Translations under genes and position numbers: made by a program
The notes under the pieces: generated by a model
What the model was told of the DNA's origin: nothing
The model's input: the letters and a program-made list of their open reading frames with translations, nothing else
Database searches by the model: none
Assembly: GCA_964384035.1 (NCBI GenBank)
Contig: CAYLIB010000004.1
Location: 5,340 to 69,339 of the forward strand
DNA from: an uncultured Candidatus Saccharibacteria bacterium
GTDB taxonomy: Bacteria > Patescibacteriota > Doudnabacteria > UBA920
DNA length: 64,000 nt
Reading direction: 5' to 3'
Part shown: piece by piece, positions 46,628 through 64,000 of the stretch
Position numbering within the stretch: the stretch's first letter is position 1
Layout: each line of letters begins with the position of its first letter

Positions 46628-46685
46628 CTTTACTACTATAGTTGCACTTGCAACTTGAGTGGTAAAGTTTTTTTATTTGACAGAT
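46627..46685 (+). terminator. Long hairpin (AACTTTAC ... GTAAAGTT with an inner GTTGCA-CT-TGCAAC palindrome) followed by a T8 run
   Basis: Read directly; the loop is unusually long. Confidence 0.45.
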
Positions 46686-46704
46686 TTTTGGGAAAGATTA
46701 TAAT
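46677..46704 (+). promoter_or_regulatory. Consensus promoter TTGACA-16-TATAAT in front of the nrtR-like gene; a GTGTA-N5-TACAC inverted repeat follows at 46705-46719
   Basis: Exact hexamers; the inverted repeat fits a GT-N7-AC core pattern. Confidence 0.6.
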
Positions 46705-46737
46705 GTGTATATCTTACACTAAGTAATAAATTTAGTA

Positions 46738-47412
46738 ATGACAAAGATTTTAAAAAAGTATAAACATGCTGTTATTGCAACCGATGTTGTAATTTTTACG
46801 GTGGATGAAAATAAGCTTAAAGTGTTACTGATTTCTATGAAGAAAGCTCCCTTTTCTGGGAAACTGGCTATTCCGGGTGGGTTAGTATTGGGAGATGAAT
46901 CTATAGACCAAGGAGCCGAGCGAATACTTCGTGAGAAGGCGGGTATAGAGAATGTATATTTGGAACAGTTGTATACATTTGGAAAAGTAGATAGGGATCC
47001 GTTTGGTAGGGTGGTCTCTGTGGCTTACTTTGCACTGCTTCCCAATACCCATGTCCAACTAAAGACCACCACGGAATATTCGGGGATTGGGTGGTATGAT
47101 GCTCGTAATTTACGAGGGTTGGCTTACGACCACGATGAAGTTTTAAGGACTGCAATTGAGAGGCTTAAGAATAAGATAGAGTATACGAACGTGGTTTATA
47201 GTCTGTTACCAAAGGAGTTTACTTTGACTGAGCTACAGAAAGTCTATGAAGTTATTTTGGATAGACGCTTGGATAAACGAAATTTTAGGAAAAAGCTTCA
47301 GGAAACGAAAATGCTTAAGAAGTTGGCTAAAAAGCAAAAAGATTCCGCGCATAGACCTGCTGAGCTTTATTCTTTTGTTAAAAAAACTATAACTAGAGTT
47401 CAAATGTTATAA
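46738..47412 (+). CDS. nrtR: NrtR-like Nudix-related transcriptional regulator (N-terminal Nudix fold with a degenerate Nudix box plus a C-terminal winged helix)
   Basis: Nudix region GGLVLGDESIDQGAERILREKAGI (RE..EE reduced to REKAG). C-terminal EFTLTELQKVYEVILDRRLDKRNFRKK matches the NrtR wHTH; it sits beside NAD salvage genes. Confidence 0.7.
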   Translation: MTKILKKYKHAVIATDVVIFTVDENKLKVLLISMKKAPFSGKLAIPGGLVLGDESIDQGAERILREKAGIENVYLEQLYTFGKVDRDPFGRVVSVAYFALLPNTHVQLKTTTEYSGIGWYDARNLRGLAYDHDEVLRTAIERLKNKIEYTNVVYSLLPKEFTLTELQKVYEVILDRRLDKRNFRKKLQETKMLKKLAKKQKDSAHRPAELYSFVKKTITRVQML

Positions 47413-47436
47413 GTTAGGCAATAAATTGGTTGATGC

Positions 47437-47448
47437 GTCAATATTGAC
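47437..47448. promoter_or_regulatory. Perfect 12-bp palindrome GTCAATATTGAC between the nrtR-like gene and the kinase-like gene
   Basis: Read directly. Confidence 0.3.
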
Positions 47449-47614
47449 ATTTTGGGTAAATTTTAGAAGAATATGCGGTATTTTGTTTCTGTTTCTGGCT
47501 TGAGAATTGGGGCCAAGGAAAATGCTAGGCCCTAAGTCTCTTGCTTGAAAAACCCTACGTGGGTGGCTCAGGCAGGAATGCACATATCAAAAGAATAGGA
47601 GGTTTAGTAGCCAA

Positions 47615-48454: not shown

Positions 48455-48458
48455 GCAG

Positions 48459-49679: not shown

Positions 49680-49708
49680 ACTCGTTGAAAGAAAACTCAA
49701 TTGAACTC

Positions 49709-49742
49709 GGGTGAGCCTTAAACAAGTTCACCCACCCTTTTT
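49709..49742 (+). terminator. Rho-independent terminator
   Basis: GGGTGA ... TCACCC stem followed by CTTTTTAT. Confidence 0.55.
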
Positions 49743-49755
49743 ATAGAGGTGAAGG

Positions 49756-51144
49756 ATGGCAAGACAAGTTTTTACGGTTACCGACTTGGGTCCGGGTGAT
49801 GGCGGAAAAGGCGGAGTAGTTCACAAAATTGCTTCGCATAAGAAAGCACATACGGTCGTAAAAGTTGGTGGCGCGCAGGGTTGTCATGGTGTTCGTACCT
49901 CAAGAGGGGAAGTTTTCAACTTTAGCCAATTGGGTTGCGGAACCTTCGAAGGCGCAAAGACTTTCATTTCGAAGAATTTTGTGGTGGATCCGGGTGGTCT
50001 GTTGGTGGAAGCCAATGACCTTCGGTATTCACACGGTATTCGAGAAGTGTTTGAACTGTTGATCCTAGACGCCGACGCTTTGTGTACGACACCATTTCAC
50101 GGGATAGCATCGAGACTTAGGGAACTTGCTCGGAAAGAGAATCAGAAAGGAATTGTAGGGCTTGGGATAGGCGAAGCCTATTTGGACTCCGAACTTCACC
50201 CTGATTTAGCTATTCGAGTGGGAGACCTTTTGGGTAGCGGGCTTGAAGAAAAGCTTGAAGCGATTCGACTCTTAAAACTTCGAGAACTTTCGGACATAAT
50301 TGATAGAATGAGCGAGTTATGGCCGGGAGATATTGAGATGGCGAGAGAAGAAATTGCTTTCTTGCAGAACCCGAATGCAGTTAGGGTTGTGGCTAATAAG
50401 TACCGCGAGTTCGCGAGAACTGTGAGGATTGTAGACACAGACTTTCTTCGGAAAGATATTCTGTTGCGAGACGGAGTAGTGGTGTTTGAAAGTTCTCATG
50501 GGATACTTACGGACAGAATTCATGGGTTTTACCCTCATACCAGTAAACTTCGAACTTTACCGGAACTAACTACATTTAACCTGTTGGATGAATGTGGATA
50601 CAACGGTCAGGTTGTGAAGTTCGGGATTACGCGTGGTTACCAGATACGGCATGGTGCTGGGCCTATGGTGACGCATAATCCTGACCTCTCTGAGTTATTG
50701 CTTCCAGGAAGCAGTGGCGAAGAAAACCGATGGAGAGGTAAGGTGCGAGTGGGGCCGTTGGATTTTGTTTCTCTGCGGTATGCGCTAGGCATAATTGACC
50801 ACTTGGATGCGATTGCTGTTACGTGGTTCGACCAGATTGGAATTTTCGGGCAGTGGCAGATATGCGATAGTTATTCTGCAAATGACCCGAAAGGATTCCT
50901 GACGGAAGAAAAGCGAGACATTAAACGTGTTCAGCTTGAGGGACAAGCTAAGCTCGATTATCAAACAGAGCTAACCCGGTTTCTGTTTGGGTGCAAGCCT
51001 AATGTAACTCATCTTGCTCTTCCTGAGAATGGAAGTAGGCAAGGTATGTCGGGTTTGTGTTCAGAGGTTTTTGCTGAAAAGCTAGGTGTTCCCGTGAGAA
51101 TGATTTCATTTGGGCCTACAGAAGTAGAAAAAATTTTGTTGTAG
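49756..51144 (+). CDS. Divergent adenylosuccinate synthetase (PurA)-family ligase
   Basis: VFTVTDLGPGDGGKGGVVHKIA...VVKVGGAQGCHGV parallels PurA VVVLGTQWGDEGKGKIVD...VVRYQGGHNAGHT, with the catalytic Asp and His positions kept. GLGIGEAYLD parallels GRGIGPAYEDK. Confidence 0.6.
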   Translation: MARQVFTVTDLGPGDGGKGGVVHKIASHKKAHTVVKVGGAQGCHGVRTSRGEVFNFSQLGCGTFEGAKTFISKNFVVDPGGLLVEANDLRYSHGIREVFELLILDADALCTTPFHGIASRLRELARKENQKGIVGLGIGEAYLDSELHPDLAIRVGDLLGSGLEEKLEAIRLLKLRELSDIIDRMSELWPGDIEMAREEIAFLQNPNAVRVVANKYREFARTVRIVDTDFLRKDILLRDGVVVFESSHGILTDRIHGFYPHTSKLRTLPELTTFNLLDECGYNGQVVKFGITRGYQIRHGAGPMVTHNPDLSELLLPGSSGEENRWRGKVRVGPLDFVSLRYALGIIDHLDAIAVTWFDQIGIFGQWQICDSYSANDPKGFLTEEKRDIKRVQLEGQAKLDYQTELTRFLFGCKPNVTHLALPENGSRQGMSGLCSEVFAEKLGVPVRMISFGPTEVEKILL

Positions 51145-51178
51145 GCAGAGTTCAAAATAAACTTTGCCTAAATTTTTT
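51144..51178 (+). terminator. Rho-independent terminator
   Basis: GGCAGAGTT-CAAAATA-AACTTTGCC hairpin plus a T6 run. Confidence 0.6.
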
Positions 51179-51346
51179 AAAAGTAGATTGACAAAAGTAA
51201 TAAAATATTGTAGTGTGTACAGTCTTCGTGGTTAGTAGATTATTGGTGAAAATAATTTTTCGACAATAATCCGCTAGTCAACGCGACATGCGGGGAAGTT
51301 CTCGTACCTAACAACAACACAATTTCAATTGGAGGAAACAATTGCC

Positions 51347-52381
51347 ATGGCAATGAACGTTGAATTGAAAACACGACTCCAGTCCGAGGAATTCGGACTC
51401 AACGATGAACAGATCGGAAAGCTCGAAGCTGCTGGTTTGAAAGAAGCGACTGACTTCGCTCTTTTGAGCGGAACTCAGATTGCTGAAATCGCGAGCGTTG
51501 GAGTCATTACTGCGTTGAAGATTGGTCAGGCGTTTGCGCCTACGCCGGTCTTTACGGCTCCGGCTGCTGCAACCTCTGATTCCGATGATCACCCGATGAC
51601 TCCGCCGTCGAAAGCGGAGGTGAACAACTTTGCCGGCTCGCTCGGTATGAGTTCGGATGTTCTGATGATGGTCCTGATGGGCAATTTGGCCGGTGGTGGA
51701 ACAAACGGCATGGACTTTTCGGGCTTGATCCCTTATGGTCCTTTGCTGCTCAGTTATAACCCGCGCCGCAAAGATATCGCTTATCAGGTACTCGCATCGC
51801 TGGAACGCCAGCTTGGCACCGACATTATCGTCATCAACAGCGACGGCTCGATTAATCGAGAGCTGACGGCTCAGTACATTGAGTCCTTGGAGCAAGGGTA
51901 TGACTCGGCTCCTGACAACATCTACACGGATCGTAATGGTGAACTCCATGAGATCGTTCGTGTCGGTGTGGACGCGCAGAGTATCGCGGACGCGGATCCG
52001 CTCGATTCAACCAAGGCCCTTCAGCAGAACGGTCAGGGTATCGGTCGAATTCAGTGGGGTGGTGTCAGTCTCGACGTTCGTCAGACTGTTTACTTCGCCG
52101 TCAAGACTGGTGAAGTCGGTCCGGCCAATGAGTCCAGCCTGGTGTGGTTGCGTGACAACGTCAAACCCGGAATGAATCGTTTGATTTTGAGTCGCCAGGC
52201 TCCGAAGGCGATAGCAATGTTCAACGAAGCGTCTCGGACGGGCAACCTGCCCACTCTTCGGGTGATGCTGGGCCGTGGTCCACGCAAGCAGGAAGTGACG
52301 AATCGTCGCCGTTTTACTACGCCCAAGGACCTGAGTGGCATCGGTCGCAACAACCCCTTTAACGAAGACGATCGTCTGTAA
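51347..52381 (+). CDS. Hypothetical protein (345 aa)
   Basis: ATG at 51347 with GGAGG 12 nt upstream; the track's TTG start at 51329 is less likely. Preferred over the overlapping minus-strand ORF 51308-51949. Confidence 0.5.
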   Translation: MAMNVELKTRLQSEEFGLNDEQIGKLEAAGLKEATDFALLSGTQIAEIASVGVITALKIGQAFAPTPVFTAPAAATSDSDDHPMTPPSKAEVNNFAGSLGMSSDVLMMVLMGNLAGGGTNGMDFSGLIPYGPLLLSYNPRRKDIAYQVLASLERQLGTDIIVINSDGSINRELTAQYIESLEQGYDSAPDNIYTDRNGELHEIVRVGVDAQSIADADPLDSTKALQQNGQGIGRIQWGGVSLDVRQTVYFAVKTGEVGPANESSLVWLRDNVKPGMNRLILSRQAPKAIAMFNEASRTGNLPTLRVMLGRGPRKQEVTNRRRFTTPKDLSGIGRNNPFNEDDRL

Positions 52382-52391
52382 TCGTCTGAAT

Positions 52392-52421
52392 GGATAACTT
52401 TAAAAAGAGTTATCCTTTTTT
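52392..52421. terminator. Bidirectional terminator between convergent genes
   Basis: GGATAACT-TTAAAAAG-AGTTATCC hairpin plus a T6 run. Confidence 0.7.
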
Positions 52422-54363
52422 ATTTGTCCAGATTTGGGAGGAAAACTTTGTCTATATATAGTTTGCTCGCGAGTCTTCTGTAGCCGGGGTCCCAGAATGT
52501 ACTTTCACCGTCTACTTCTGCTTTGTGTTTGCTTCTAACTCCCGGTATGGCTGGATGGAATCTTTCGTAGCCTTTATGTAGTAGGCGATATTGTAATGTG
52601 TCGCGCTCCATGGCCTCTAGCCATATTCTTCTGGCTGGTTGGTTTTCTATTTTTTTGTCTTTTGGGTGCAAGAATCCTGGAAGAGTTTTTTTGTAAATTT
52701 CTTTAATGCTATCTGTGTTACCTACCCAAACGCCGCCTAAGAGTACGTGGGAAAGTGAGCTGTCGCCAAGATGGTTGTCTGGAGTTGGAAAGTCTTGGAT
52801 GTTTAATTCTTCTTCGGTTTCATATAGCCAAAACTGCATTGCTTCGCCTTCGGCTTTGTGGTTGCCGAAATGTGTTTTGAGTAACTTCTCTATTTGAGGT
52901 TTGTCAGTGGAAGGTATTCCTGGTTTGATAAATATAGCTATGTCTACGTCGGCTGTTATTTTTCCGTAACCTTTTACTTTAGAACCATACATAATGGCAA
53001 TGGGATAGATGAATTTAGAAAGTTCTGGATTTTCTTCAATGGTTTTAATCATCTCGTTTAGTTCTGAAATTTCTTTTTCCACCTGACTGTTTTCAATCGA
53101 AAATGCAGAATCTAACTTGGGGATTTTAAAACCTTTTTGTGAAATGCTATTTTCGTCTACAAGACCTAGAGAGTGTAGACGCGACCAAAACACTAACAGT
53201 GAATCTTGTATTTCTAGATCTCCGGTTTTTTGTATTTGCTCAAGTAAAGGTTCTAATCTTTTTAGTAAATCTTCTGTGTTCTGGGGTTTGGACTCAAGGG
53301 TTTTTCCTAATGTCTTGATGACTAGGAGTTTATAAACTTTACCTTCTGTATTGGCGATTCCCGATATTTGTTCTGGTGTTAGATTGCCTTCTTTTAAACT
53401 CTCGGATAGTGCTTCTGCGAATTGTTCTAGAATTGCGTTTTCCTCTGTGAGTCTTAGCCAATCTGCCCTGGCTTTGGGGAGGTTAGTGAGATTTCTTTCG
53501 TATCTTGTACTTAATTCGGCGAGTGATGTTTGAAATTTAATAGCTAGGTTAGTTTTTTCTAACTTAGGTTTTTCGGAATGTTGGGTATGTGTTACAGATT
53601 CTATTTGAGATTTTAAGTTTACTAATACATCTTCTCCAGATTCTTCCAATTGTTTTAGAAGTTCCTCTGAGAAAGGATTTTGTTCGTTTAGAATGAGTAG
53701 TGTGTCTGCTAGGCTTTGTTTTTGAATTGGGTCTTTTGCTTCGACGATTAGTTTAATAACATCGGAATGGGAGAGGTAGTTTTTTTCTACAAGCTTAACA
53801 GCAAGGTGGCCTGCTTTGGCGACTCTTGGTAGTGGTTCACTACGAATTTCTGGTTCGGGAATATTGCCGTCTTTGAAATTTGCCGGGATGTCAAAAATTT
53901 CTAACTGTTCATGCCAGCGTTGCATGTAGACCTCAGAGAAGTGTTTTGCGGATTCTGCAAGTGGTTTAGATTTCGTTTTTAGGTTTTTTTCTGGGAGTAA
54001 CTCGAAGGGTAAATATAAAATGAGTCGGCCGTAGTCTGGGTCGCTTAGTAGTTCTGTTAGTTTGTCGTATAGGTCGGCGAGTTCTTTTGGGGTTACTTGT
54101 TTTTCTTTTAGGGCTTCGGTGAAGTTTTTTGTGGGGTCGGGGATGCGCTCGAAAATAGCCCTAACCAGAACAGAGAGTTCTCGTCTTTTTTCGGCGAGTT
54201 GTTTTAATTCTGGGTTGTTTTTTATTTCTTCTGGCCAGGGGGACTCTGGGTCTTGTGGATTCAGTAAATATTCGGTGGCGGGTTTGAATACTTTTATGTT
54301 TTTTTCTTTTTCCCGAAATTCTTGTTGTGCTTCCGGGGGAGTGAATCTTTCTGCTGTAGTCAT
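52420..54363 (-). CDS. Large protein with a C-terminal Pol-beta-superfamily nucleotidyltransferase domain; N-terminal ~450 aa helical, unknown
   Basis: NTase motif GSKVKGYGKITADVDIAIF. The gene is conspicuously AT-richer than its neighbours (~33 % GC in a sampled line). Confidence 0.6.
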   Translation of the reverse strand: MTTAERFTPPEAQQEFREKEKNIKVFKPATEYLLNPQDPESPWPEEIKNNPELKQLAEKRRELSVLVRAIFERIPDPTKNFTEALKEKQVTPKELADLYDKLTELLSDPDYGRLILYLPFELLPEKNLKTKSKPLAESAKHFSEVYMQRWHEQLEIFDIPANFKDGNIPEPEIRSEPLPRVAKAGHLAVKLVEKNYLSHSDVIKLIVEAKDPIQKQSLADTLLILNEQNPFSEELLKQLEESGEDVLVNLKSQIESVTHTQHSEKPKLEKTNLAIKFQTSLAELSTRYERNLTNLPKARADWLRLTEENAILEQFAEALSESLKEGNLTPEQISGIANTEGKVYKLLVIKTLGKTLESKPQNTEDLLKRLEPLLEQIQKTGDLEIQDSLLVFWSRLHSLGLVDENSISQKGFKIPKLDSAFSIENSQVEKEISELNEMIKTIEENPELSKFIYPIAIMYGSKVKGYGKITADVDIAIFIKPGIPSTDKPQIEKLLKTHFGNHKAEGEAMQFWLYETEEELNIQDFPTPDNHLGDSSLSHVLLGGVWVGNTDSIKEIYKKTLPGFLHPKDKKIENQPARRIWLEAMERDTLQYRLLHKGYERFHPAIPGVRSKHKAEVDGESTFWDPGYRRLASKLYIDKVFLPNLDK

Positions 54364-54483
54364 GCATTTATCGTATACTGGACAATTAAACCTTACAAGA
54401 AGCTTGATTTTAGTGAGCTTTTTCTATATAGTGCAATTTCAGTTTTCTGAGTGTTGGAATTTCAAAAATGCAAAGGAGAAAAT

Positions 54484-55230
54484 ATGATGGAGCTGAAAAA
54501 TCGCTACGAAGGCGTGTTTGTTATGAGACCCAATGTAGCTTGTCTCAATACCGATACGCTAAATGGGTTCATGGAAGGATATCCTCTCGGTGTGCCAGGG
54601 TTCAATAAAGAGTTCACTCAAAGAGTAGTTAAGGTGAACTTGCAGACTCCCTTTGAAAGACGCGTGTTGCTTGGTGATAACCACCCCTACGATTCTTGGA
54701 CATACGCAAAGAATTTTAAGGTTCCGAATTTTGCTAAGATTACCTATGAGCAATCTTTGGGTTTTACTGAGGCGAGTTTTTTACCCGGGATGCGTTGGAA
54801 AAAGCAAAACTTGGTCAACTACCTTGCGAGAGTAGGAAGTATGACGGTTTTCCCCGAGCATTGTGGGGCTGGAACAGATGAGGTCCTGCCGCCACCGGAG
54901 CTGCTTGAGATCGGGTTTGGGTTGTACTGGCCAAAAGCCAATGGGTGGGCGGAATCTCATTCGGGGTTTACTGATGCTTATGGCGATGACACTGGTCTGG
55001 AAGCAGCTCTTCGCACCAGAGCGGTTAACACTCTTGTGGTTACAGGTGTTGTTACCGAGATTTGTGTTCACGCTACTGCAGAAGACGCAAAGCGAAGAGG
55101 GTTCGATGTTTTTGTGGTTTTGGATGCCATCGCCGAGCTTAGTCCGGATGGTGGTAGAAAAGCCCTACTTGATCTGGACAGGCAAGGTGTTAGGTTCCTG
55201 ACCAGCGACCAGATTCAGCTTCATTATTAG
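54484..55230 (+). CDS. Isochorismatase-family cysteine hydrolase, putative nicotinamidase (PncA-like)
   Basis: Catalytic-Cys region LVVTGVVTEICVHATAEDAKRRGFDVFVVLDA. AAGGAG lies 5 nt before the ATG at 54484; NAD-salvage context. Confidence 0.6.
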   Translation: MMELKNRYEGVFVMRPNVACLNTDTLNGFMEGYPLGVPGFNKEFTQRVVKVNLQTPFERRVLLGDNHPYDSWTYAKNFKVPNFAKITYEQSLGFTEASFLPGMRWKKQNLVNYLARVGSMTVFPEHCGAGTDEVLPPPELLEIGFGLYWPKANGWAESHSGFTDAYGDDTGLEAALRTRAVNTLVVTGVVTEICVHATAEDAKRRGFDVFVVLDAIAELSPDGGRKALLDLDRQGVRFLTSDQIQLHY

Positions 55231-55357
55231 AAAAGCTACCCGTGAAAGTAGTATTTTTTTATCTAAAAGTTGAGTCACATCGTGGACAATGTGTGGCTTT
55301 TGGATTATTATGCAGTCTTTCCTCTTGCCGAAAATTTAAACTATTTAGGGGGTAAAA

Positions 55358-55675
55358 ATGGTAATTGGTTATTTTGTCTGGGCGGCGATATATGGGGCTT
55401 TGGTGGCTCTTTTCACCGCTCTTGGATTTGACTTCGAGGCTAACAGCTTAAATGAGACGAAAGGACAAAGGTTGCTCAAGGCGGTAGTGGTGTCGTTTGC
55501 TTTTACGGCATTTACGTCGCTTCCTTTTGTCTATGTTCCGTGTGCTTTAATTAACTGGTATTTTAAGCCGGGCGGAGGCCTTGCTTTTAAGGCAGCTGGT
55601 ATATCGCTACCTTGGCTAATTTCCGTGATCTCGGCAGTTATGGTCTCCTTTTCAATAAAGCTTAGATATAAGTAA
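55358..55675 (+). CDS. Small membrane protein, hypothetical
   Basis: 105 aa with three hydrophobic helices. Confidence 0.45.
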   Translation: MVIGYFVWAAIYGALVALFTALGFDFEANSLNETKGQRLLKAVVVSFAFTAFTSLPFVYVPCALINWYFKPGGGLAFKAAGISLPWLISVISAVMVSFSIKLRYK

Positions 55676-55713
55676 GATACTGCGAAAGTTGTTCGCGGTT
55701 TTTTATTTAGGAT

Positions 55714-55742
55714 TTGATAAAAGGGCTTAAAATTGGTATTAT
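55714..55742 (+). promoter_or_regulatory. Promoter TTGATA-17-TATTAT upstream of the nadD-like gene
   Basis: Read directly. Confidence 0.55.
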
Positions 55743-55759
55743 TTAGTGTTTTAATACCA
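55734..55759. promoter_or_regulatory. Perfect 8-bp inverted repeat TGGTATTA-N10-TAATACCA overlapping the -10 element; candidate operator
   Basis: Read directly; a related half-site TGGTATT lies in the pncB promoter at 57583-57589. Confidence 0.4.
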
Positions 55760-55777
55760 TTTTTCAAGGAGAGGAAT

Positions 55778-56356
55778 ATGGAGAGACTTGCTTTGTTTGG
55801 AGGAGCGTTTGATCCGTTTGGGAATCATCATTTGGAAGTTGTTAACGCCTTAATCAAATGTCAGTTTGTGGACCGAGTTGTGGTTTTTCCTTCCGGGGAC
55901 AGGCCGGACAAGCCTTACATTACAAAAGGTGTTCACCGGGGGGAAATGATTCGTTTGGCTTGTGAGAGACTGCGAAGGGTGCAAGTAGATTTATCGGACA
56001 TCACGGAAGGGACTTATAGTCGGGCTTGGGACTTGCAGATGAAGTTTGGCAAGAAGTACGAAGTTCTGCATGTAATCGGTTCGGACTGGCTGGTGGTGGG
56101 TGAAGATGGAATTGTGCCGGTAAAGAAATGGTTTAAAGGAAACGAGCTTTGGGATAATGCGCAGTTCTTAATTGTTACAAGACCGGGGTTCGAATACGGT
56201 GCGATTCAGACACCGACGAAGTCTTTTACTTTAAAACTTGAGAGACAAGGTTCGAGTACGGAAATTCGGAATTTAGTGAAAGCGGGAAAATGTATTTCCG
56301 GACTTGTAGACCCCAAAGTGGAAAAGTATATTTATGAAAATGAGTTGTATGTTTAG
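55778..56356 (+). CDS. nadD: Nicotinate/nicotinamide mononucleotide adenylyltransferase (NadD/NadM-like)
   Basis: LFGGAFDPFGNHH (variant of the (H/T)xGH motif) and a C-terminal SSTEIR motif. Start taken at 55778 with AAGGAGAGG upstream. Confidence 0.7.
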   Translation: MERLALFGGAFDPFGNHHLEVVNALIKCQFVDRVVVFPSGDRPDKPYITKGVHRGEMIRLACERLRRVQVDLSDITEGTYSRAWDLQMKFGKKYEVLHVIGSDWLVVGEDGIVPVKKWFKGNELWDNAQFLIVTRPGFEYGAIQTPTKSFTLKLERQGSSTEIRNLVKAGKCISGLVDPKVEKYIYENELYV

Positions 56357-56493
56357 TCTGGCATGGACTGTTGTTTCTGTGCCAGAAATATTTTTAGAGG
56401 TTTTTATCTGAACTACTCGGATGGAAATTTCTGGGCTTGAAAAGTTCGAGCCTGAAGTACTAACAACCGAAGAAAATAATTGGAGGAAACGAG

Positions 56494-56556
56494 ATGCGGA
56501 AATTAATCGTGTCTACTGAGTTCAAAGCGGGTAAGTGGGTGATTGAAAAGATCTAG
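56494..56556 (+). CDS. 20-codon candidate leader peptide (MRKLIVSTEFKAGKWVIEKI) preceded by the recurring AATTGGAGGAAAC motif
   Basis: ATG lies 4 nt after GGAGGAAAC; the motif also occurs at 51327 and 57627. Confidence 0.25.
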   Translation: MRKLIVSTEFKAGKWVIEKI

Positions 56557-56574
56557 GATGCAACGGCGGGTTTG

Positions 56575-57534
56575 ATGAATGCTGGAGCGCCTATTTCTGA
56601 AAACTTTCCGGGTTTTGTTCCCGTCGTGTTTGGCACCACAGAGGGCGAGAATGAAAATTTTGATGTTCTTAAAAGCCAACTCGACCCGATCTATCAAGCG
56701 ATGTGTATTGACCCAAAGATCCGTGTGGGCGGTCCGTATGGTGACTACCTTACAGTGGTGGAATCTAGTGGTTCTTACACTCTCATTGAAGCGGGTTTGA
56801 AGGCGTGGCCGAAGGCGGCTATTGCTTCTGACCTGTTTCCGGTTATTATCACACCTTCGGGTAAGGTTTTCTTCGTTGGAATTGTTCGCGTGCAACCGCC
56901 GGGTGTTGGTGGACCAGCCTCGCTTGGTGGGTTCAATGGGGTGTTTGGACCTCACTTTGCTTCTTCGCCGGAATGCTTGCTTGGTTACGATAAAAAGGAG
57001 AAAGACGAGGCGCGTGAAGAGATTGGTATGAAGGTGTGGGTCAACAATGACATTCCCTTCGACCAGGAAACTCCATTCCCAGATATGGTTGCAGTCAAGG
57101 TTAAGATTGGCGAAAAAACCTATGAAACGTCAATCTACAGTCTTGGTGAGACGTATACTACGGAAGAAGAATACCTCCCAAATTTGAACGAACAGCGGGT
57201 GCATGCGGCTTGGGGTTACCTTATGCCGGTCGTGATTCACGAAGAAGTGACCAGAGAGGAATTGCTTGCCCAGTTCAAATGCAACGACCCTAAAGAGGGT
57301 AATGGCATTTATGTGCAAGAGATTACCGCTGAGTCTGGCTTCGAGCTTCCGCTACCCATTGGACATCATCAACGACTGTGGATGCGCGCGGTTCAATTGC
57401 TTCAAACTTTCACTGCGGCTACCATTAACCCGATCGGAGAACTTTTCCAAATTCTCGAAGAGGGGCTTGATTTTGCCTCGGAACGGTTTGCGCAATATGC
57501 TAACGGGGGCGGAAAGATTAAACCACTTGGTTAA
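56575..57534 (+). CDS. Hypothetical protein (320 aa) inside the NAD cluster
   Basis: GC-rich ORF between nadD and pncB; preferred over the overlapping minus-strand ORF 56503-56955. Confidence 0.5.
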   Translation: MNAGAPISENFPGFVPVVFGTTEGENENFDVLKSQLDPIYQAMCIDPKIRVGGPYGDYLTVVESSGSYTLIEAGLKAWPKAAIASDLFPVIITPSGKVFFVGIVRVQPPGVGGPASLGGFNGVFGPHFASSPECLLGYDKKEKDEAREEIGMKVWVNNDIPFDQETPFPDMVAVKVKIGEKTYETSIYSLGETYTTEEEYLPNLNEQRVHAAWGYLMPVVIHEEVTREELLAQFKCNDPKEGNGIYVQEITAESGFELPLPIGHHQRLWMRAVQLLQTFTAATINPIGELFQILEEGLDFASERFAQYANGGGKIKPLG

Positions 57535-57562
57535 GAGCTACTAAAAGGTAGTTCTTTTTTTA

Positions 57563-57591
57563 TTGACATTTAGGCTGAAAAATGGTATTTT
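57563..57591 (+). promoter_or_regulatory. Promoter TTGACA-17-TATTTT upstream of pncB, followed by the inverted repeat AAATCT-N5-AGATTT (57598-57614)
   Basis: Read directly. Confidence 0.55.
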
Positions 57592-57640
57592 TGGGCTTAA
57601 ATCTTGACCAGATTTCATTTCAATTGAATTGGAGGATTCT

Positions 57641-59227
57641 ATGAATAGTTTGACGTTGCCGAGACTTGGCATGCTTCAATCCGATATGTACCAGCTAACC
57701 ATGCTGTACGCATATTGGAAAAGTGGTACCCATAACAAGCATGCTGTATTTGATCTGTTTTTCCGCAAGACACCTTTCGGTGGAGAATTCGCGGTGTTTG
57801 CCGGGTTGTCTGATGTACTTAGCTATCTTGAGAATTTTCGGTTTACTGCCGAGGATATCGAGGTAGCTCGCGAGTTGTTACCGCACGCAGAACCTGCTTT
57901 CTTCGTTTTTCTTTCTGAGCTTGACGCGAGCGAAGTTAAAATTTACGCGCAACCTGAAGGTTCTTTGGTTTTTCCTCGGACTCCGCTGATTCGAGGCGAA
58001 GGCCCATTGGGTGTGCTCCAATACATGGAGACCACCTCGCTTAACCTCGTTAACTATGCGACTTTGGTTGCGACCAATGCGGCGAGGTTCAGGTTGGCTG
58101 CCGGACCGACTGCTGTGCTAATGGAATTTGGAATGCGTAGAGCGCAGGGTCTGGACGGCGCGCTGACTGCTTCCAAGTATACGTATCTGGGTGGGTTTGA
58201 TTACTCTTCCAATATGCGTTCGAAGCAGATTGATGGTGTTCCTTGTAGAGGTACTCATGCTCATGCTTTTGTCTCTTCCTTTACCGGACTTGAAGACATT
58301 ACGTCTCGGTCTATTACCATGCAAGATGGTGGTGTGAACCAGGACTTTGTCGGCATGGTCTTGCAAATGAGACGAGTGTTGGGCTACAACAAAACGAACG
58401 ATGGAGAATTGGCTGCGTTTATTAGTTACGCACAAGCTTTTCCGTCAGGATTTCTCGCTCTCGTGGACACCTATGACACACTGAAGTCCGGCATTCCTAA
58501 CTACATCTGTGTTGCTTCCGCTTTAGGGTGGATAGGTCTGAGCGCTCAAGGTATTCGTTTGGATTCTGGTGACTTGGCTTATTTATCAAAAGAGGCTAAG
58601 AAGATGATTCTGGATGCCAAAGAAAAAACCGGAGTGGATCTTTCAGGGCAAGCTTCAAAAATCGTGGCGAGTAACGACATTACCGAAGATATTTTGCTGT
58701 CCTTAAAGGAGCAGGGTCATGCAATTGATGTTTTCGGCATTGGAACTCATCTCGTAACCTGTTTGAAACAACCCGCCTTGGGTGGTGTTTATAAACTGGT
58801 GTCCATCGACGGTAAAGACCGGATAAAGCTGTCGCAAGAGAAAGTGAAAATTACTATCCCAGGTCGGAAGAAAGTTTTCAGGCTTTTCGATAGCAATTCG
58901 GAAATGATCGCCGATGTGATGGTGGAAGATGGAAACGCAGAGCCAGAGGAAGGTCAACCGTTTTTACTCAGAGATCCGTTCGATGAGTATAAGCAGATGG
59001 TTGTAGTGCCTTATGCTGTGGAGTCCAGACTCGAGTGTTATTGGGACGACGGTTTGCTTCGTAAGCCCACCTTACAACAAGGTAAGGATTTGCTTCAGTC
59101 TGAACTCAAGAAAATCCGCCCTGATCATTTGCGGTTCTTGAATCCAACACCATACAAGGTCTCGGTCGGTAGTGAACTTTTTGATAAGCTACACAGTCTC
59201 TGGAAGAAAGAGCTTGTGCTTATATAG
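57641..59227 (+). CDS. pncB: Nicotinate phosphoribosyltransferase (long eukaryote-like NAPRT type)
   Basis: LQSDMYQLTMLYAYWKSG...FDLFFRKTPFGGEFAVFAGL...LVATNAARFRLAAGP...RRAQG.DG.LTAS.Y.YLGGFD.SSN closely parallels NAPRT. ATG at 57641 after GGAGG. Confidence 0.85.
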   Translation: MNSLTLPRLGMLQSDMYQLTMLYAYWKSGTHNKHAVFDLFFRKTPFGGEFAVFAGLSDVLSYLENFRFTAEDIEVARELLPHAEPAFFVFLSELDASEVKIYAQPEGSLVFPRTPLIRGEGPLGVLQYMETTSLNLVNYATLVATNAARFRLAAGPTAVLMEFGMRRAQGLDGALTASKYTYLGGFDYSSNMRSKQIDGVPCRGTHAHAFVSSFTGLEDITSRSITMQDGGVNQDFVGMVLQMRRVLGYNKTNDGELAAFISYAQAFPSGFLALVDTYDTLKSGIPNYICVASALGWIGLSAQGIRLDSGDLAYLSKEAKKMILDAKEKTGVDLSGQASKIVASNDITEDILLSLKEQGHAIDVFGIGTHLVTCLKQPALGGVYKLVSIDGKDRIKLSQEKVKITIPGRKKVFRLFDSNSEMIADVMVEDGNAEPEEGQPFLLRDPFDEYKQMVVVPYAVESRLECYWDDGLLRKPTLQQGKDLLQSELKKIRPDHLRFLNPTPYKVSVGSELFDKLHSLWKKELVLI

Positions 59228-59254
59228 TAAGAAATTTTCTTACTTCTTTTTTCT
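59227..59254 (+). terminator. Rho-independent terminator
   Basis: GTAAGAA-ATT-TTCTTAC hairpin plus a T-rich run. Confidence 0.6.
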
Positions 59255-59301
59255 AGGTTCTAAACATTTGGAATTTGGAAATTGGGTTTTTAGGAGGAAT
59301 T

Positions 59302-59493
59302 ATGCTGCTAGTTAATACGCTCTTGGTTTATTGGAAAATTTGGCTTACTGGGTTTGGTGTGGGGATTGCTGTCTTCTTTTTTGGGGGCAGACAGTTTTAT
59401 ACATTGCTTGGTATGTTGATAAGTGTGGTATTCGGATTTTTGTTATTTGTACCACTTATCATAGTTGGGATAGTAAAGTTATTGCACTTGTAG
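59302..59493 (+). CDS. Small two-TM membrane protein
   Basis: TAGGAGG lies 4 nt upstream of the ATG at 59302. Confidence 0.45.
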   Translation: MLLVNTLLVYWKIWLTGFGVGIAVFFFGGRQFYTLLGMLISVVFGFLLFVPLIIVGIVKLLHL

Positions 59494-59565
59494 GCAATAA
59501 TTTCTTTTTTTCTTTCGCTAATAGAGATATTGGCGTAGGAAATTTGGAAATTTTAGGAGGGGAAT

Positions 59566-60531
59566 ATGAATTCGATTTTAGATCCGGAACAGGTGGTTAT
59601 GGTTAGTACGAAACCATACCAGTACTTCGCGGAACTGCTTGCGCAGAAACTTGGAATTCCTTTTGGGAAAATTAAGATTTCTCGTGAGAGGTTTTCTGAT
59701 GGCGAAGATTATTTGCGTGCAGGAATTGGCGATCGCAACGAACTTGCTGGTAAGGATGTAATTGTTGTTGGTGGGGGTCTGGATAATGCGAGTTTGATTG
59801 AAGTGGTTCGTCTTGGAAATATTTTTGCGCCTAATACGCGCAAAAGAATTTTCGTGAATCCGTTTCAAGCTTACTCAACCATGGAACGAGCGAAAAAACC
59901 AGGAGAGAGTGTAAACGATTGGCTTTACAATATTTACCACTCAATTCCGAACAACGGTTTGGGGAATGCTTTTATGTTCTTAGACCTCCACGAAGAAGGT
60001 CAGCTTAACTCTTTGAAACGTGATCGACAGGCTGCTTCTCTTTATGCAGAACCCGTCATGTTTGAAGCTATTCGTGGATTCACGCTTCCGGAGGTTTTTG
60101 GATCAGCAGATACCGGAAGGCCAGATTGGGTGAAGAGCTATGCGGATAAGTTTGACGTAGAGATTGCAGTCGTAGCGAAAGATCGTGACTTCGAAACTAC
60201 AAAACTTATGTACGCCATTGGTGACGTGGAAGGGAAGGTTGTCTGGATTTATGACGACATGATAAGGTCGTTCGGCACTGCTGAACTTGCGGTGAACGCT
60301 TACCTTTCAAGGGGCGCGAAGGCTGTTTATATGGCATCTACCCATATGACGCTTAACAACGGCAAATGGCGGCGGTGTCTGGACAAGCTGGAGCACTCCA
60401 AGGTCGCACATGTCATAACCACTAACTCGCATCCGGTAACGCAGAAGCTTGCCGTGAGTGGGTCGAAGAAAGTAACCGTTGTGGACGTGAGTGGTGTGTT
60501 CGTAGAACCGATACTCGCGTTACTCAGATAG
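59566..60531 (+). CDS. Ribose-phosphate pyrophosphokinase (Prs)-family protein, divergent
   Basis: RERFSDGEDYLR, LHEEGQL...LYAEPVM, AIGDVEGKVVWIYDDMIRSFGT and GAKAVYMASTH parallel Prs motifs. The canonical GYARQDRK loop is not obvious. Confidence 0.65.
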   Translation: MNSILDPEQVVMVSTKPYQYFAELLAQKLGIPFGKIKISRERFSDGEDYLRAGIGDRNELAGKDVIVVGGGLDNASLIEVVRLGNIFAPNTRKRIFVNPFQAYSTMERAKKPGESVNDWLYNIYHSIPNNGLGNAFMFLDLHEEGQLNSLKRDRQAASLYAEPVMFEAIRGFTLPEVFGSADTGRPDWVKSYADKFDVEIAVVAKDRDFETTKLMYAIGDVEGKVVWIYDDMIRSFGTAELAVNAYLSRGAKAVYMASTHMTLNNGKWRRCLDKLEHSKVAHVITTNSHPVTQKLAVSGSKKVTVVDVSGVFVEPILALLR

Positions 60532-60540
60532 GAGAACTAA

Positions 60541-62385
60541 ATGAATTCCGTAAAGCTTTCAATTGGACAGATGCGGGTTAAGCCTGCTTCGCCGATGCAT
60601 AACGCGGAGAGTATGGTCTCGGAAATAAATGAGGCTGTCCGGCGTGGGCAGGAGCTTATTGTGTTTCCGGAAATGGCTATCCCGGGATATTTACTCGGTG
60701 ACCGGTTCGAGTTTGAAGATTTTCTTCGCCAAATCGAATTGGCTAACCAGAAAGTGATTGAAGCCAGCAAGGCCGGTATCGTAGTTATTTTTGGTTCCAT
60801 ATACATTGACCGGGCGAAGAAGGGCGAAGATGGTAGGGTGCGGAAACTGAATACGGCGTTTGTTGCCAAAGATGGGAAATTGGTGCAAAAAGTTGTGAAG
60901 ACGCTTCATCCAAACTACAGGTACTTCTTCGACGATAGACAATTCTTCAGTCTCCGTAAGGTTGCTGAGGAAATTGCTCTGGAGTCTGGGAGACCTTTGG
61001 TTGATGTTTTGCGGGAGCTAATTGTTCCGGTTAGAGTCCGGGTCGGTTCGCAGGAGGTCTCCATTGGCTTGCACCAGTGTGAAGATATGTGGCATGGGGA
61101 CTACAACATTAGCCCCGCACATTTTCTTTACGAGCAGGGTGTAGACTTTTTTGTGAACTTGTCTGCGAGTCCTTGGGGTTGGCAGAAGAACCGCAAACGT
61201 CATCAGGTAGTTAGGGAACTTCTGGCAGATTGTCCTGCGCCGTATGTGTACGTGAACTTTGTGGGTGTAGACCAGATTGGGAAATCTATTATTACCTACG
61301 AAGGAGCGAGCACGGTTTACGATGCCTCGGGACGAATAGTTTACAATGCGCCTCGGCACAAAGAAGGAGTTTACGATTTTCTTCTTTCGGGCCAGATGCG
61401 CGAAGTACACCAGGAAGAACCGAGCGATACGGAACAACTCTATTGGGCGGTGTTTAATGCTATGAAAGCTTGTCTTGGTAACAAGAAAGTTGTGATTGGG
61501 CTTTCTGGTGGCATAGACTCTGCGGTTTCGTTTGCGATGGCGGTTTTGGTTCGTGGGGCAGAAAATGTTATTCCAATTAACATGCCTTACGACTACAACT
61601 CACCCAAACTACAAGACTTTGCAAGAGACATTGCCAGAAATTTCGGCACAGAGTATTTGGTTCAACCGATTGCAGAAATGGCTGAACCTTTCTTGAAGAT
61701 TCGTAGTGTGCAGAAAGAAGGTGTTGCATACGAAAACGTGCTTGCACGTGCCAGGGGAAATATTCTTTGCACTTACGCTCAAACATACGACAACGCGCTG
61801 GTGTTGTGTAACGGCAACAAGGTTGAATATGCTTTTAACTACGGAACGCTTTATGGTGATATCTTAGGAGCGTATGCTTTCCTTGCAGACCTTGCAAAAC
61901 GCGAGGTCAGACAACTTGCGGAATTTATTAACCATATTTACGGTAGGGAAATGATTCCGCAGGAAGTGATAGACCAGAAACCGTCGGCGGAACTAAAGAC
62001 TGGTCAGTTCGATCCGTTCGATTATGGTGACCTGAAAGAAAGAGGTTACCATGATGAACTTGTTCGGGCTTTTACAGAATTCCGTGCGACACCTGCGTGG
62101 GTGCTAGAGCATTTCGCTAATGGTACTCTGGAAGAAGTTATGAAACTAACTCCCGGTAGGCTGGCAAAGTGGTTCTCCAATGGAAATGGTGGTGTGGACA
62201 AGAGAGCCTTTGTTTCGGATTTGGAGCGATGGTGGGCACAGTTCCAGGCTCCTTTCAAACGGAACCAATCGCCATATATTCTGGTGGTAAGCAGGAAAGC
62301 ATTCGGGCACGACTTGGTTGAATCTATGTTTCCGATGGAAGAGACTGCTCGGTATAGCGAACTGAAATCTGCCTTACTCGGGTAG
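60541..62385 (+). CDS. nadE: Glutamine-dependent NAD+ synthetase (N-terminal CN-hydrolase domain plus C-terminal NAD synthetase)
   Basis: Nitrilase-like N-terminus; PP-loop GLSGGIDSAV; 614 aa. Starts 9 nt after the prs-like stop, with AGGAG. Confidence 0.9.
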   Translation: MNSVKLSIGQMRVKPASPMHNAESMVSEINEAVRRGQELIVFPEMAIPGYLLGDRFEFEDFLRQIELANQKVIEASKAGIVVIFGSIYIDRAKKGEDGRVRKLNTAFVAKDGKLVQKVVKTLHPNYRYFFDDRQFFSLRKVAEEIALESGRPLVDVLRELIVPVRVRVGSQEVSIGLHQCEDMWHGDYNISPAHFLYEQGVDFFVNLSASPWGWQKNRKRHQVVRELLADCPAPYVYVNFVGVDQIGKSIITYEGASTVYDASGRIVYNAPRHKEGVYDFLLSGQMREVHQEEPSDTEQLYWAVFNAMKACLGNKKVVIGLSGGIDSAVSFAMAVLVRGAENVIPINMPYDYNSPKLQDFARDIARNFGTEYLVQPIAEMAEPFLKIRSVQKEGVAYENVLARARGNILCTYAQTYDNALVLCNGNKVEYAFNYGTLYGDILGAYAFLADLAKREVRQLAEFINHIYGREMIPQEVIDQKPSAELKTGQFDPFDYGDLKERGYHDELVRAFTEFRATPAWVLEHFANGTLEEVMKLTPGRLAKWFSNGNGGVDKRAFVSDLERWWAQFQAPFKRNQSPYILVVSRKAFGHDLVESMFPMEETARYSELKSALLG

Positions 62386-62392
62386 TAATACT

Positions 62393-62417
62393 ACTCACTT
62401 TTTAGTGAGTTTTTTTA
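62393..62417 (+). terminator. Rho-independent terminator
   Basis: ACTCACT-TTTT-AGTGAGT hairpin plus a T7 run. Confidence 0.7.
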
Positions 62418-62483
62418 TTGACTAAACTTGGTAAATAGATGAATATATAGTGTTTTCCAGCAAATTTTCAACTAGGAGGAAGT

Positions 62484-63380
62484 ATGAAGAACATCTATAT
62501 TCCCAAGACAGAAAGGGAGTGGATTGAGTTCGTTTTGGACCAGCTAATTCCAGATGCGGATATGCGGAAATACTGGTTGGTGCAAAAGGGTGTGAGATTT
62601 GTAGTGGCTCACAAAGCAATGGGCTTCTATGAGGTGTCGGATAATAGTGAAGTGGCGACCGCTTCCAGTTTTACCAACTGGGCAGAAATGCGCGGGTATT
62701 CAAACCCTGCGATGCAGTCGCTTTACTATCTACATGAAATTCCGCTTCACGGCGTGTTTCAGTATGTGATTAATCCGAATGGGATGACTATTGATTCATT
62801 CATTAATGCATATCAGGAACCTGCAGAAACTGTTGCTAGTAATGGGAGTGAAATTGGTGTGTACCGGGACATTCGCTTTTACAGAGATAAGGTTTTCCAA
62901 GATCAGGAAATTTTGAGCGACAGAATACAGCGGCGTGGGTTTGTGAGCTGGCCGAGTGTTTATGACTTGGCTCAGTTCAGGCGTAAGCTTGTAAACACAG
63001 ATGAGCTTGATTGGCTCTATTTTAAAACGAGGGAACAAGAAGATCCTGTTCGCGACTGGGTAAAGCAGTGGGGGGAGACGAATACGAATTGGAGCAAGAA
63101 GCGGTTTAAGCAACTACAAAGCTTGAAACTTAAGAACCAATACGTTTTTCCGGGATGTACCCATTATGGTTACCGGGAAGAGCTATGGTCATGGAAGTTT
63201 AACTTCAGCAAATCACGGTACGAGCGTTTAGTGAAAACTAATTGCGAGTTACTTTACGATATGTTGGGTAGGAATGATGCACCAAAAACTTTCGAGGAAT
63301 GTTTGGAAAGAGTACCCGAGGAACTTGAAGGGGCGGTGTTTCCGTTAGCTAATCAAGAGGAGGTGAAAAATGGAATCTAG
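62484..63380 (+). CDS. Hypothetical protein (298 aa)
   Basis: AGGAGG upstream; no recognisable motifs. Confidence 0.5.
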   Translation: MKNIYIPKTEREWIEFVLDQLIPDADMRKYWLVQKGVRFVVAHKAMGFYEVSDNSEVATASSFTNWAEMRGYSNPAMQSLYYLHEIPLHGVFQYVINPNGMTIDSFINAYQEPAETVASNGSEIGVYRDIRFYRDKVFQDQEILSDRIQRRGFVSWPSVYDLAQFRRKLVNTDELDWLYFKTREQEDPVRDWVKQWGETNTNWSKKRFKQLQSLKLKNQYVFPGCTHYGYREELWSWKFNFSKSRYERLVKTNCELLYDMLGRNDAPKTFEECLERVPEELEGAVFPLANQEEVKNGI

Positions 63381-64000
63381 GCAGCAAACGAGGAAAGAAG
63401 AAATTGCTGAAATCCAGAGACGATTTGGAGTTATGCAGGCGGTCTATTCTTACCCGAATCCGGAATTAAGAGAGTTGGTAATTCCTGGGGTGGTGAATGG
63501 TACCGAAATGTCATTTCGGAGTGTGGCGCCGGCTTGGACTGAGGTTGAACCTTTGGATTACGGCATGGACCGCGCGGGCGTGTCTGTTATGGAAAAGTTT
63601 TTACTCGAATTTGAATCTATGATGAAATTTGAAAAAACCGATTTTCCGAATAGGTACTGGACGCCAGGTGGTTATCATGGTCTGTTTCATCTGTTTAATC
63701 ACATTGCGAATAACTGCCTTGAGAAACCGTACATTTACGTTTTTCACGGTGAGTATGAGGGTGTGTTTGAGCATATTACCGGTCAGAATAATCTCCCTGC
63801 GGTAGCGGTTCCGGAGAGTGTTCCACCGAAGCATTTAGTAAGAAAAGGGATCGATTATTTGTACGTCTCTCAACCGAACGCGAGGGATGGTCGAGTAATA
63901 GATCCTGCTGTGCTTCAGGAGTGGAGTGATGCTGGGGCTAAAATAATTCTCGATGCGGCTTACCTTGGAATGGTAGACGAGCATATTGATGCTACTATGC
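63370..64000 (+). CDS. 3'-truncated ORF (over 210 codons, runs off the window), possibly a class I/II PLP aminotransferase-like protein
   Basis: AGGAGG lies 7 nt before the ATG at 63370. The frame is open to the window end; KIILDAAY resembles the aminotransferase DEAY region. Not in the supplied track because it has no stop. Confidence 0.4.
   Translation, partial: MESRQQTRKEEIAEIQRRFGVMQAVYSYPNPELRELVIPGVVNGTEMSFRSVAPAWTEVEPLDYGMDRAGVSVMEKFLLEFESMMKFEKTDFPNRYWTPGGYHGLFHLFNHIANNCLEKPYIYVFHGEYEGVFEHITGQNNLPAVAVPESVPPKHLVRKGIDYLYVSQPNARDGRVIDPAVLQEWSDAGAKIILDAAYLGMVDEHIDATM

Follow-up and report, generated by a model that had tools for sequence, protein, structure and literature searches.

The 64-kb window analyzed here (the whole stretch of DNA, 64,000 nucleotides) encodes, between nicotinate phosphoribosyltransferase (NAPRT) and NAD synthetase (NadE), a divergent 321 amino acid (aa) homolog of Prs that is probably a ribose-phosphate diphosphokinase supplying phosphoribosyl pyrophosphate (PRPP) for NAD salvage, and that belongs to a distinct clade of this family without the allosteric sites of class I enzymes. 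This protein is predicted to convert ATP and ribose-5-phosphate (R5P) to PRPP and AMP; the gene appears to be co-transcribed with those for NAPRT and NadE, and the PRPP would be used to convert nicotinate to nicotinate mononucleotide (NaMN). The remaining steps would be nicotinamide to nicotinate by a PncA-like hydrolase, NaMN to nicotinate adenine dinucleotide (NaAD) by NadD, and NaAD to NAD by NadE. The operon most likely represents an ordinary Preiss-Handler salvage route in a Patescibacteria genome, one that includes a PRPP synthase of its own, probably insensitive to feedback.

The Prs homolog barely reaches the cut-off of the subfamily model TIGR01251 (113.4 versus 113 bits) and falls far under the cut-offs of all equivalog models. 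It was aligned with its database relatives, eight canonical Prs (from E. coli, Acinetobacter, Staphylococcus, Enterococcus, two Listeria, a Microcystis phage, and P0022) and seven phage Adps, the Prs-fold enzymes that pyrophosphorylate ADP-ribose (ADPR), including the biochemically and structurally characterized Adps of phage ICP1 (PMC13586617). In a neighbor-joining tree (53 sequences, 302 columns, 200 bootstraps), the canonical enzymes (196/200), the Adps (200/200) and the clade of the window protein (200/200) are separated, and the sub-clade that includes the window protein is supported by 191/200 bootstraps. Among hidden Markov models (HMMs) of the three groups, that of its own clade, from which the window protein and its closest relative were left out, gives 304 bits and that of the canonical group 87 bits, whereas the Adps model does not match. 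Because the three-group alignment, the tree and the HMM scores agree, the window Prs is, as far as sequence comparison goes, neither a canonical class I enzyme nor an Adps but a member of a third branch of the Prs family, here denoted the STMER clade. The initial annotation had set its suggestion of an ADPR-dependent activity against a protein inside the canonical class I clade with conserved R5P-binding residues; the residues are indeed conserved, but the protein lies outside that clade (200/200).

The window protein carries all signatures of the STMER clade (Table 1), in short GYSTMER, S/TxDxGR, YDDMIR(S/T)GG(S/T) and TNSHP; the atypical flexible loop noticed in the initial annotation is YSTMERAK in place of the canonical YARQDR(K/R). 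Residues T105, M106, R108, R185 and R234 are invariant in the clade alignment A2. The best match of the window Prs among the GTDB species representatives listed, which do not include the host species, is 43% identical, and close phage relatives are lacking, with none above 28% identity. A sequence search of the PDB retrieved canonical PRPP synthetase (PRPS) and PRPP-synthetase-associated protein (PAP) entries alone, and no Adps entry. No published account of this clade or its signatures, including the enzymology of any member, was found in the literature. As a side observation, Listeria, Staphylococcus and Enterococcus phage records labeled UNVERIFIED_ORG (OR845007, OR846588, OR846739, OR846757 and similar) contain canonical host-type prs genes and look like bacterial contigs deposited as phage.

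Table 1. Sequence motifs of the three groups of Prs-family proteins
Region	Canonical Prs	Adps	Window clade
RF loop	GYARQDR(K/R)	xARxDR	GY(S/A/T)TMER
His motif	DLH	DPHS	DLH
PP loop	SPDxGG	APDxGA	(S/T)xDxGR
Catalytic loop	DKRR	KxR	KxR
R5P-phosphate loop	DDxIDTxGT	DDI(C/A/S)(D/S)(G/Y)xx(T/S)F	YDDM(I/T)R(S/T)xx(S/T)
Near-C-terminal motif	TD(T/S)IP	variable, none shared	T(N/D)(S/T)HP
C-terminus	SVSxLF tail	short	full-length last helix, no SVSxLF

Despite this divergence, the PRPP-site motifs are retained, in agreement with the initial annotation. In the cryo-EM structures of E. coli PRPS, ADP is contacted by F35, D37, R99 and H131, and R5P by D170, D220, D221, T225 and T228 (PMC9232217). The aligned residues of the window Prs are F43, D45, R108 and H142 for ADP, and D182, D230, D231, S235 and T238 for R5P; the catalytic-loop residues K205 and R207 (equivalent to K194 and R196) are invariant in the clade, as are nearly all of the aligned ADP-binding, R5P-binding and catalytic residues. 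The PRPS two-domain fold, the catalytic Lys/Arg loop and the equivalents of His131 and the R5P site are evident from the alignment, the AlphaFold2 model (pLDDT 88.6) and the Foldseek comparison, in which all top PDB matches are PRPP synthases (TM 0.80-0.84), including the human, E. coli and B. subtilis enzymes. A non-catalytic role as a Prs-associated subunit, similar to eukaryotic PAP39/41, is extremely improbable for this protein: the weak sequence matches to the associated proteins 2ji4 and 2c4k that would suggest such a role span the C-terminal 100 residues only, and the catalytic K205, R207, H142, D182 and D230/D231 are invariant.

The regulatory elements are a different matter. The class I allosteric ADP/Pi site, which consists of the basic regulatory flexible (RF) loop ARQDRKxRSR, Arg49 and the C-terminal SVSxLF, was not found in the aligned window Prs. 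The basic RF-loop residues are replaced (YSTMERAKKPGE versus the canonical YARQDRRVRSAR), alanine occupies the position of Arg49, and the protein stops directly after the last helix. Thus, class I allosteric control probably was lost, rendering the enzyme feedback-insensitive; with the ADP/Pi allosteric sites missing, the adenylate pool would not restrain the PRPP supply to NAD salvage.

Several observations weigh against the assignment of this protein as a PRPP synthase dedicated to NAD salvage. Four clade-invariant changes map next to the active site, namely R96 to T105, Q97 to M106, G174 to R185 and D224 to R234 (canonical numbering from the human alignment); T105 and M106 directly precede the conserved Asp/Glu-Arg of the RF loop, R185 is in the pyrophosphate (PP) loop and R234 in the 5-phosphate loop. 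The catalytic loop, K-x-R-DFExT, is one residue shorter than the canonical one, similarly to several Adps (phages CH1, Wilder and PJN02). The tree is a neighbor-joining tree with few canonical sequences and without class II or class III representatives. Finally, the NrtR-type regulator encoded in the window is a candidate regulator of the NAPRT operon, upstream of which no NrtR box was found. The first of these points raises the possibility of another altered specificity, whereby the STMER loop, R185 and R234 would alter the donor, for example to GTP or dATP as in plant class II enzymes, or the acceptor, to a different phosphoribose. The four substitutions flank the ATP and 5-phosphate sites, and model confidence is lowest in the RF-loop and catalytic-loop regions (pLDDT 60-80). 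However, all residues through which E. coli PRPS directly contacts ADP and R5P are retained and the genomic contexts demand PRPP, so such a change of specificity appears unlikely.

The remaining question of chemistry concerns ADPR. The initial annotation raised the possibility that the Prs homolog pyrophosphorylates ADPR, in an Adps/Namat-like manner. In such a scheme, Prs would make ADPR pyrophosphate (ADPR-PP), NAPRT would join it with nicotinate to yield NaAD, and NadE would convert the latter to NAD, in a deamido version of the phage NAD+ reconstitution pathway NARP1. The gene arrangement is compatible with this scheme inasmuch as a divergent Prs adjoins a type II phosphoribosyltransferase (PRT), followed by NadE, the enzyme needed after NaAD. 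In addition, two relatives (L007 and L012) have NAPRT-Prs-NadE without NadD in the fragment examined, an ADPR-sensing NrtR is encoded nearby, and the catalytic loop is akin to that of the three phage Adps. Nevertheless, this scheme is very improbable for the window protein, which falls outside the Adps clade (200/200) and is not matched by the Adps HMM. The hallmarks of ICP1 Adps are the adenine contacts R87 and F92, the donor loop DDICDGxx(T/S)F with its aromatic cap, and a truncated C-terminus (PMC13586617). The window Prs lacks R87, F92, F221/F223, the DDICDG loop, DPHS and APDxGA; it has T105 and K110 at the positions of R87 and F92 and DDMIRSFGTAEL at the donor loop, and keeps the long C-terminus. 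The composition of the loci discussed below argues against ADPR-PP as well: NadD is present in the cluster, the NAPRT type is exchanged between close relatives, the NadV partners of clade members are of the Nampt rather than the Namat type, and Nudix hydrolases, which would destroy ADPR, co-occur. The broader conjecture that the entire STMER clade was retuned by T105, M106, R185 and R234, possibly to ADPR or another ribosyl phosphate, resulting in a cellular deamido NARP-like shortcut, also strikes us as quite unlikely. If true, this route, from ADPR-PP and nicotinate to NaAD and, via NadE, to NAD, would extend across hundreds of bacterial species, bacteria of the candidate phyla radiation (CPR) and even metamonad eukaryotes. 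NARP3, which consists of PnuC and NadR, was also considered and is irrelevant to the NAPRT-Prs pair.

We infer that the product is PRPP, and four types of evidence favor the suggestion of the initial annotation that the NAPRT-Prs pair may simply provide this compound. The first one is the conservation of the substrate contacts. Second, NadD is encoded in the cluster in the window as well as in L010, L013 and L020, which implies that PRPP-derived NaMN is an intermediate, NadD being needless if NaAD were made directly. Third, the PRT in the window is a genuine NAPRT, as initially proposed, and its type was replaced in situ between close CPR relatives (57641-59227 in the window versus 2581-3861 in L107). 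The Prs, NadE and NadD of L107 are, respectively, 92, 96 and 94% identical to those of the window, whereas its NAPRT is a 426-aa protein of the TIGR01514 (PncB) type that scores above its own curated cut-offs and shows 28.7% identity to the window NAPRT; this swap indicates that Prs works with interchangeable standard NAPRTs, and it argues for a standard metabolite. Fourth, the NadV homologs encoded next to clade members (L061, L092, L109 and L111) contain the Nampt-type motif GMGGxLLQKxDRD. All seven Namat sequences have the helix GS[YF]x[YT]Q[YFC]xTRD, the adenine-clamp helix (PMC12774641), which is not present in these four NadV partners.

Additional, unusual loci of the clade bear on the same issue. 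In P0121 (L117:8001-9737), a STMER-clade Prs is naturally fused to an isochorismatase/PncA domain at the C-terminus, and NadD and NadE are encoded about 6 kb downstream; the fusion joins the makers of both NAPRT substrates and so counts in favor of PRPP. Among ten longer clade members, the N-terminal extensions of nine contain no Pfam domain, and P0121 is the sole informative case. The operon of P0007 (42% identical; L009:598-8036) also encodes a UbiA prenyltransferase, GT-C glycosyltransferases, a short-chain dehydrogenase/reductase (SDR) epimerase and a PHP phosphatase, a layout that presumably resembles the PRPP-dependent decaprenyl-phosphoribose/arabinose (polyprenyl) pathway, here outside Actinobacteria. 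In L017, a nucleoside phosphorylase gene is located directly upstream of Prs. The P0007 operon and L017 point to independent contexts of the PRPP type. The Nudix hydrolase genes that accompany the operon in L007 and L015, along with a weakly Nudix-like 319-aa protein in the window, would fit a putative recycling route from ADPR via R5P to PRPP, as proposed previously (PMC2330246).

The connection of the clade to NAD metabolism was assessed in 80 species-representative loci, 69 of which include enough upstream DNA, with NAD genes counted within 8 kb. NAPRT is encoded directly upstream of Prs in 21 of the 69 loci, often with overlapping genes, and NadE directly downstream in 17 of 65; NrtR and PncA are found in the vicinity of Prs in 12 and 11 of the 80 loci, respectively. 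At least one NAD gene is present in 37 loci, and a NadV homolog in only 3. Given these counts, the adjacency of Prs and NAD genes is not due to chance. The NAPRT-Prs-NadE order recurs in distant members (L007, L010 and L012), within larger arrays in L007 (Nudix-NADK-NAPRT-Prs-NadE) and in L010 (NrtR-x-NadD-NAPRT-x-Prs-NadE, adjoining PnuC and a NadR-like gene), and NrtR is encoded directly beside Prs in six loci (L036, L038, L046, L047, L049 and L084). Apart from NAD genes, no recurrent neighbors were found among the clade loci.

In about half of the 80 loci, Prs is a stand-alone gene without NAD neighbors, and this is one reason to consider that the window protein is the sole housekeeping Prs of a reduced CPR genome that resides in an NAD operon by chance, its divergence reflecting lineage drift. 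The host belongs to Patescibacteria and has a small, streamlined genome, and a phmmer search with E. coli Prs detected no second Prs homolog in the 71 kb covered, the window plus an adjoining 7 kb. We view this explanation as possible but doubtful. The clade signatures are conserved in phyla with large genomes (Chitinophaga, Myxococcota, Planctomycetota) and so are not a product of CPR drift; linkage with NAPRT, NadE, PncA and NrtR recurs in unrelated phyla; and species with NrtR-linked prs-nadV operons are reported to carry two prs paralogs (Rodionov et al., 2008; PMC2330246). Moreover, the housekeeping alternative pertains to the genomic role rather than the chemistry, and is compatible with the synthesis of PRPP that we favor.

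The STMER clade is widespread in cellular organisms. A profile search of 1.84 billion representatives yielded 1161 proteins at E<=1e-30, corresponding to about 1,100 50%-identity clusters. A pattern scan of GTDB species genomes identified at least 591 relatives that were confirmed; their hosts include Bacteroidota, Myxococcota, Planctomycetota, Verrucomicrobia and several CPR lineages, among other groups. From viral contigs the clade is nearly absent, with 7 IMG/VR contigs versus 1468 phage records for Adps. These contigs (L109-L115) include ones of 257, 374 and 482 kb and one giant-virus metagenome-assembled genome; a Nampt-type NadV neighbor is encoded in two of the seven, and NAPRT in none. 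The sub-clade of the window Prs also includes proteins from metamonad eukaryotes, Barthelona sp. PCE (P0004) and Aduncisulcus paluster (P0015). The Barthelona gene (L116:8001-9125) is located on a 689-kb contig among typical eukaryotic genes (Arf, NOB1, MLH1, DHHC), and because it is flanked by these genes, its presence suggests bacterium-to-eukaryote transfer rather than contamination.

The genes at 57641-60531 (Table 2) lie exactly where the initial annotation placed them, with open reading frames for Prs and an intervening small membrane protein between NAPRT and NadE. After NAPRT, the next convincing terminator-like hairpin in a consensus scan is downstream of nadE; together with the promoter-like site before NAPRT, this suggests that a single transcription unit comprises the genes for NAPRT, the 63-aa protein, Prs and NadE. 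The motif GGAAATTTGGAAATT, followed by TTAGGAGG, is repeated just upstream of the 63-aa gene (59258-59300) and of the Prs gene (59535-59565); it may represent an element, common to these two genes, that acts in translation initiation or regulation. The PncA-like protein weakly matches the nicotinamidase/pyrazinamidase model.

Table 2. Predicted genes and sites of the NAD salvage locus and its surroundings
Feature	Position	Strand	Basis
NrtR-type regulator (Nudix domain and winged helix)	46738..47412	+	Pfam NrtR_WHD 92.5 bits and NUDIX
PncA-like isochorismatase-family hydrolase, putative nicotinamidase	54484..55230	+	Pfam Isochorismatase 64.9 bits, C-terminal half
105-aa membrane protein, function unassigned	55358..55675	+	no family match
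NadD, nicotinate-mononucleotide adenylyltransferase	55778..56356	+	CTP_transf_like; TIGR00482 93.9 bits, cut-off of 112 not reached
319-aa near-orphan protein, possibly degenerate Nudix fold	56575..57534	+	weak profile link
Terminator-like hairpin just before the promoter-like site	57533-57556		consensus scan
Promoter-like site TTGACA-17-TATTTT with TG extension, before NAPRT	57563..57591	+	consensus scan, inference only
NAPRT, 528 aa, TIGR01513 type	57641..59227	+	NAPRTase_N, NAPRTase_C; TIGR01513 474.4 bits, cut-off 297.4
63-aa two-helix membrane protein	59302..59493	+	called as gene in JGI/Logan/NCBI records; no family match
Prs homolog, STMER clade, 321 aa, putative PRPP synthase	59566..60531	+	Pfam Pribosyltran_N and Pribosyl_synth; TIGR01251
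NadE, glutamine-dependent NAD synthetase	60541..62385	+	CN_hydrolase and NAD_synthase
Terminator-like hairpin after nadE	62393-62410		terminator scan

The genes for the 105-aa and 63-aa membrane proteins are interleaved with the NAD genes; both are conserved in the related species L107 and were not found in more distant clusters. Compared with their L107 counterparts, the 63-aa protein is 68% identical, with an invariant C-terminal half (25 synonymous versus 20 non-synonymous codon differences), and the 105-aa protein is 87% identical (37 versus 14). The 319-aa protein has two database matches in total, and its AlphaFold2 model is unusable (pLDDT 37.8); comparison with the Nudix/NrtR alignment by hhalign detects weak similarity over the GG...EAREEIG region (Prob 76%, E 2.3e-5), and a remote homolog in L014 shows a weak Pfam NUDIX match (E 0.038). 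A longer upstream frame of this gene (56494-56577) starts from ATG 56494 behind a GGAGG ribosome-binding site and matches the N-terminus of a 77%-identical relative, P0168. Its codon 21 is an in-frame TAG, which leaves three options for the gene: a restart at 56575, damage or recoding.

The gene for the NrtR-type regulator precedes the NAD genes by about 10 kb, and its product scores 168 bits with the NCBIfam model of the ADPR-responsive repressor, under the cut-off of 400. The window thus contains a prs gene next to that of an NAD-salvage PRT (57641-62385), with nrtR in the neighborhood. The sole GT-N7-AC palindrome lies at 46704-46720, upstream of nrtR itself, and no second copy of this box was found before pncA, nadD or pncB; the operator motif of this lineage may differ. 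A 44-bp palindrome at 46626-46669 was rejected as an NrtR operator, being the terminator of the upstream gene.

The interval that separates nrtR from the NAD genes (47615-54363) is occupied by uncharacterized genes. Their products are proteins of 279, 406 and 350 aa, a highly diverged protein that resembles adenylosuccinate synthetase (49756-51144; TIGR00184, 79 bits versus a cut-off of 396) and, on the minus strand, a 647-aa protein with a weak match to Pol-beta nucleotidyltransferases. Near 46 kb, the G+C content increases from about 36% to 42-52%, and it remains high past the end of the window (to about 20 kb of L001). The NAD genes, nrtR and a number of orphan genes are located in this compositionally distinct stretch (about 46000 to 64000 within the window), which may be acquired DNA. 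The other genes in the window include those for DnaG, RpoD, PGK, GAPDH, pyruvate kinase and GlmS. The best named relatives of RpoD (about 80% identity) come from Patescibacteria and Candidatus Doudnabacteria, which identifies the host, by sequence, as a bacterium of the Patescibacteria (CPR); a phage origin of the window is ruled out by RpoD along with DnaG and the three glycolytic enzymes.

If the assignment proposed here is correct, a large branch of Prs is wired to NAPRT, Nampt, PncA and NadE and lacks the classical feedback sites, which would answer the question, raised in 2008, of why some bacteria keep separate PRPP machinery for pyridine salvage. The signatures give annotators a simple sequence rule to distinguish housekeeping Prs, salvage-dedicated Prs and phage Adps, and a naturally feedback-insensitive PRPP synthase would be of practical interest for the bioproduction of nicotinamide mononucleotide (NMN) and NAD.

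Among the known systems, the class I enzymes (E. coli and B. subtilis Prs, human PRPS1/2) share with the window Prs the two-domain fold, the ADP and R5P contacts, the catalytic-loop Lys/Arg and, presumably, the reaction. Unlike these enzymes, to which it shows 24% identity, the window Prs belongs to a separate clade (196-200/200), has YSTMER, SxDxGR, DDMIRS and TNSHP in place of YARQDR, SPDxGG, DDxIDT and TD(T/S)IP, and lacks the C-terminal SVSxLF and the basic allosteric residues. The Adps of NARP1 (SpbetaL1, Bas63, ICP1; Paenibacillus foliorum), with the phage and bacterial copies (the latter from P. foliorum) all falling in the Adps clade, are similar in that a Prs-fold protein is encoded next to a type II PRT for NAD rebuilding, in the loss of allosteric regulation and in the short K-x-R-D-x-x-T catalytic loop. 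In contrast to Adps, the window Prs (17% identity) comes from another clade, an essentially cellular one, whose partner is NAPRT or of the Nampt type rather than Namat, and it has a full-length C-terminus but neither the aromatic-capped donor loop nor the ADPR-adenine contacts. The closest parallel in gene arrangement is the NrtR-linked prs-nadV operons, in which, likewise, a pathway-committed Prs gene adjoins that of an NAD-salvage PRT with an NrtR gene nearby, and for which the purpose of separate PRPP machinery was "yet to be elucidated" (Rodionov et al., 2008; PMC2330246). The window system differs in that the partners are NAPRT (pncB) and NadE instead of NadV, an arrangement, pncB-prs-nadE, that is absent from the table in that paper, and in that no NrtR site was found upstream of the operon. 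Altogether, what appears to be new is the combination of pncB-prs-nadE with a sequence-recognizable and apparently uncharacterized branch of Prs, whereas the system as such apparently is of a known kind, a pathway-committed PRPP synthase.

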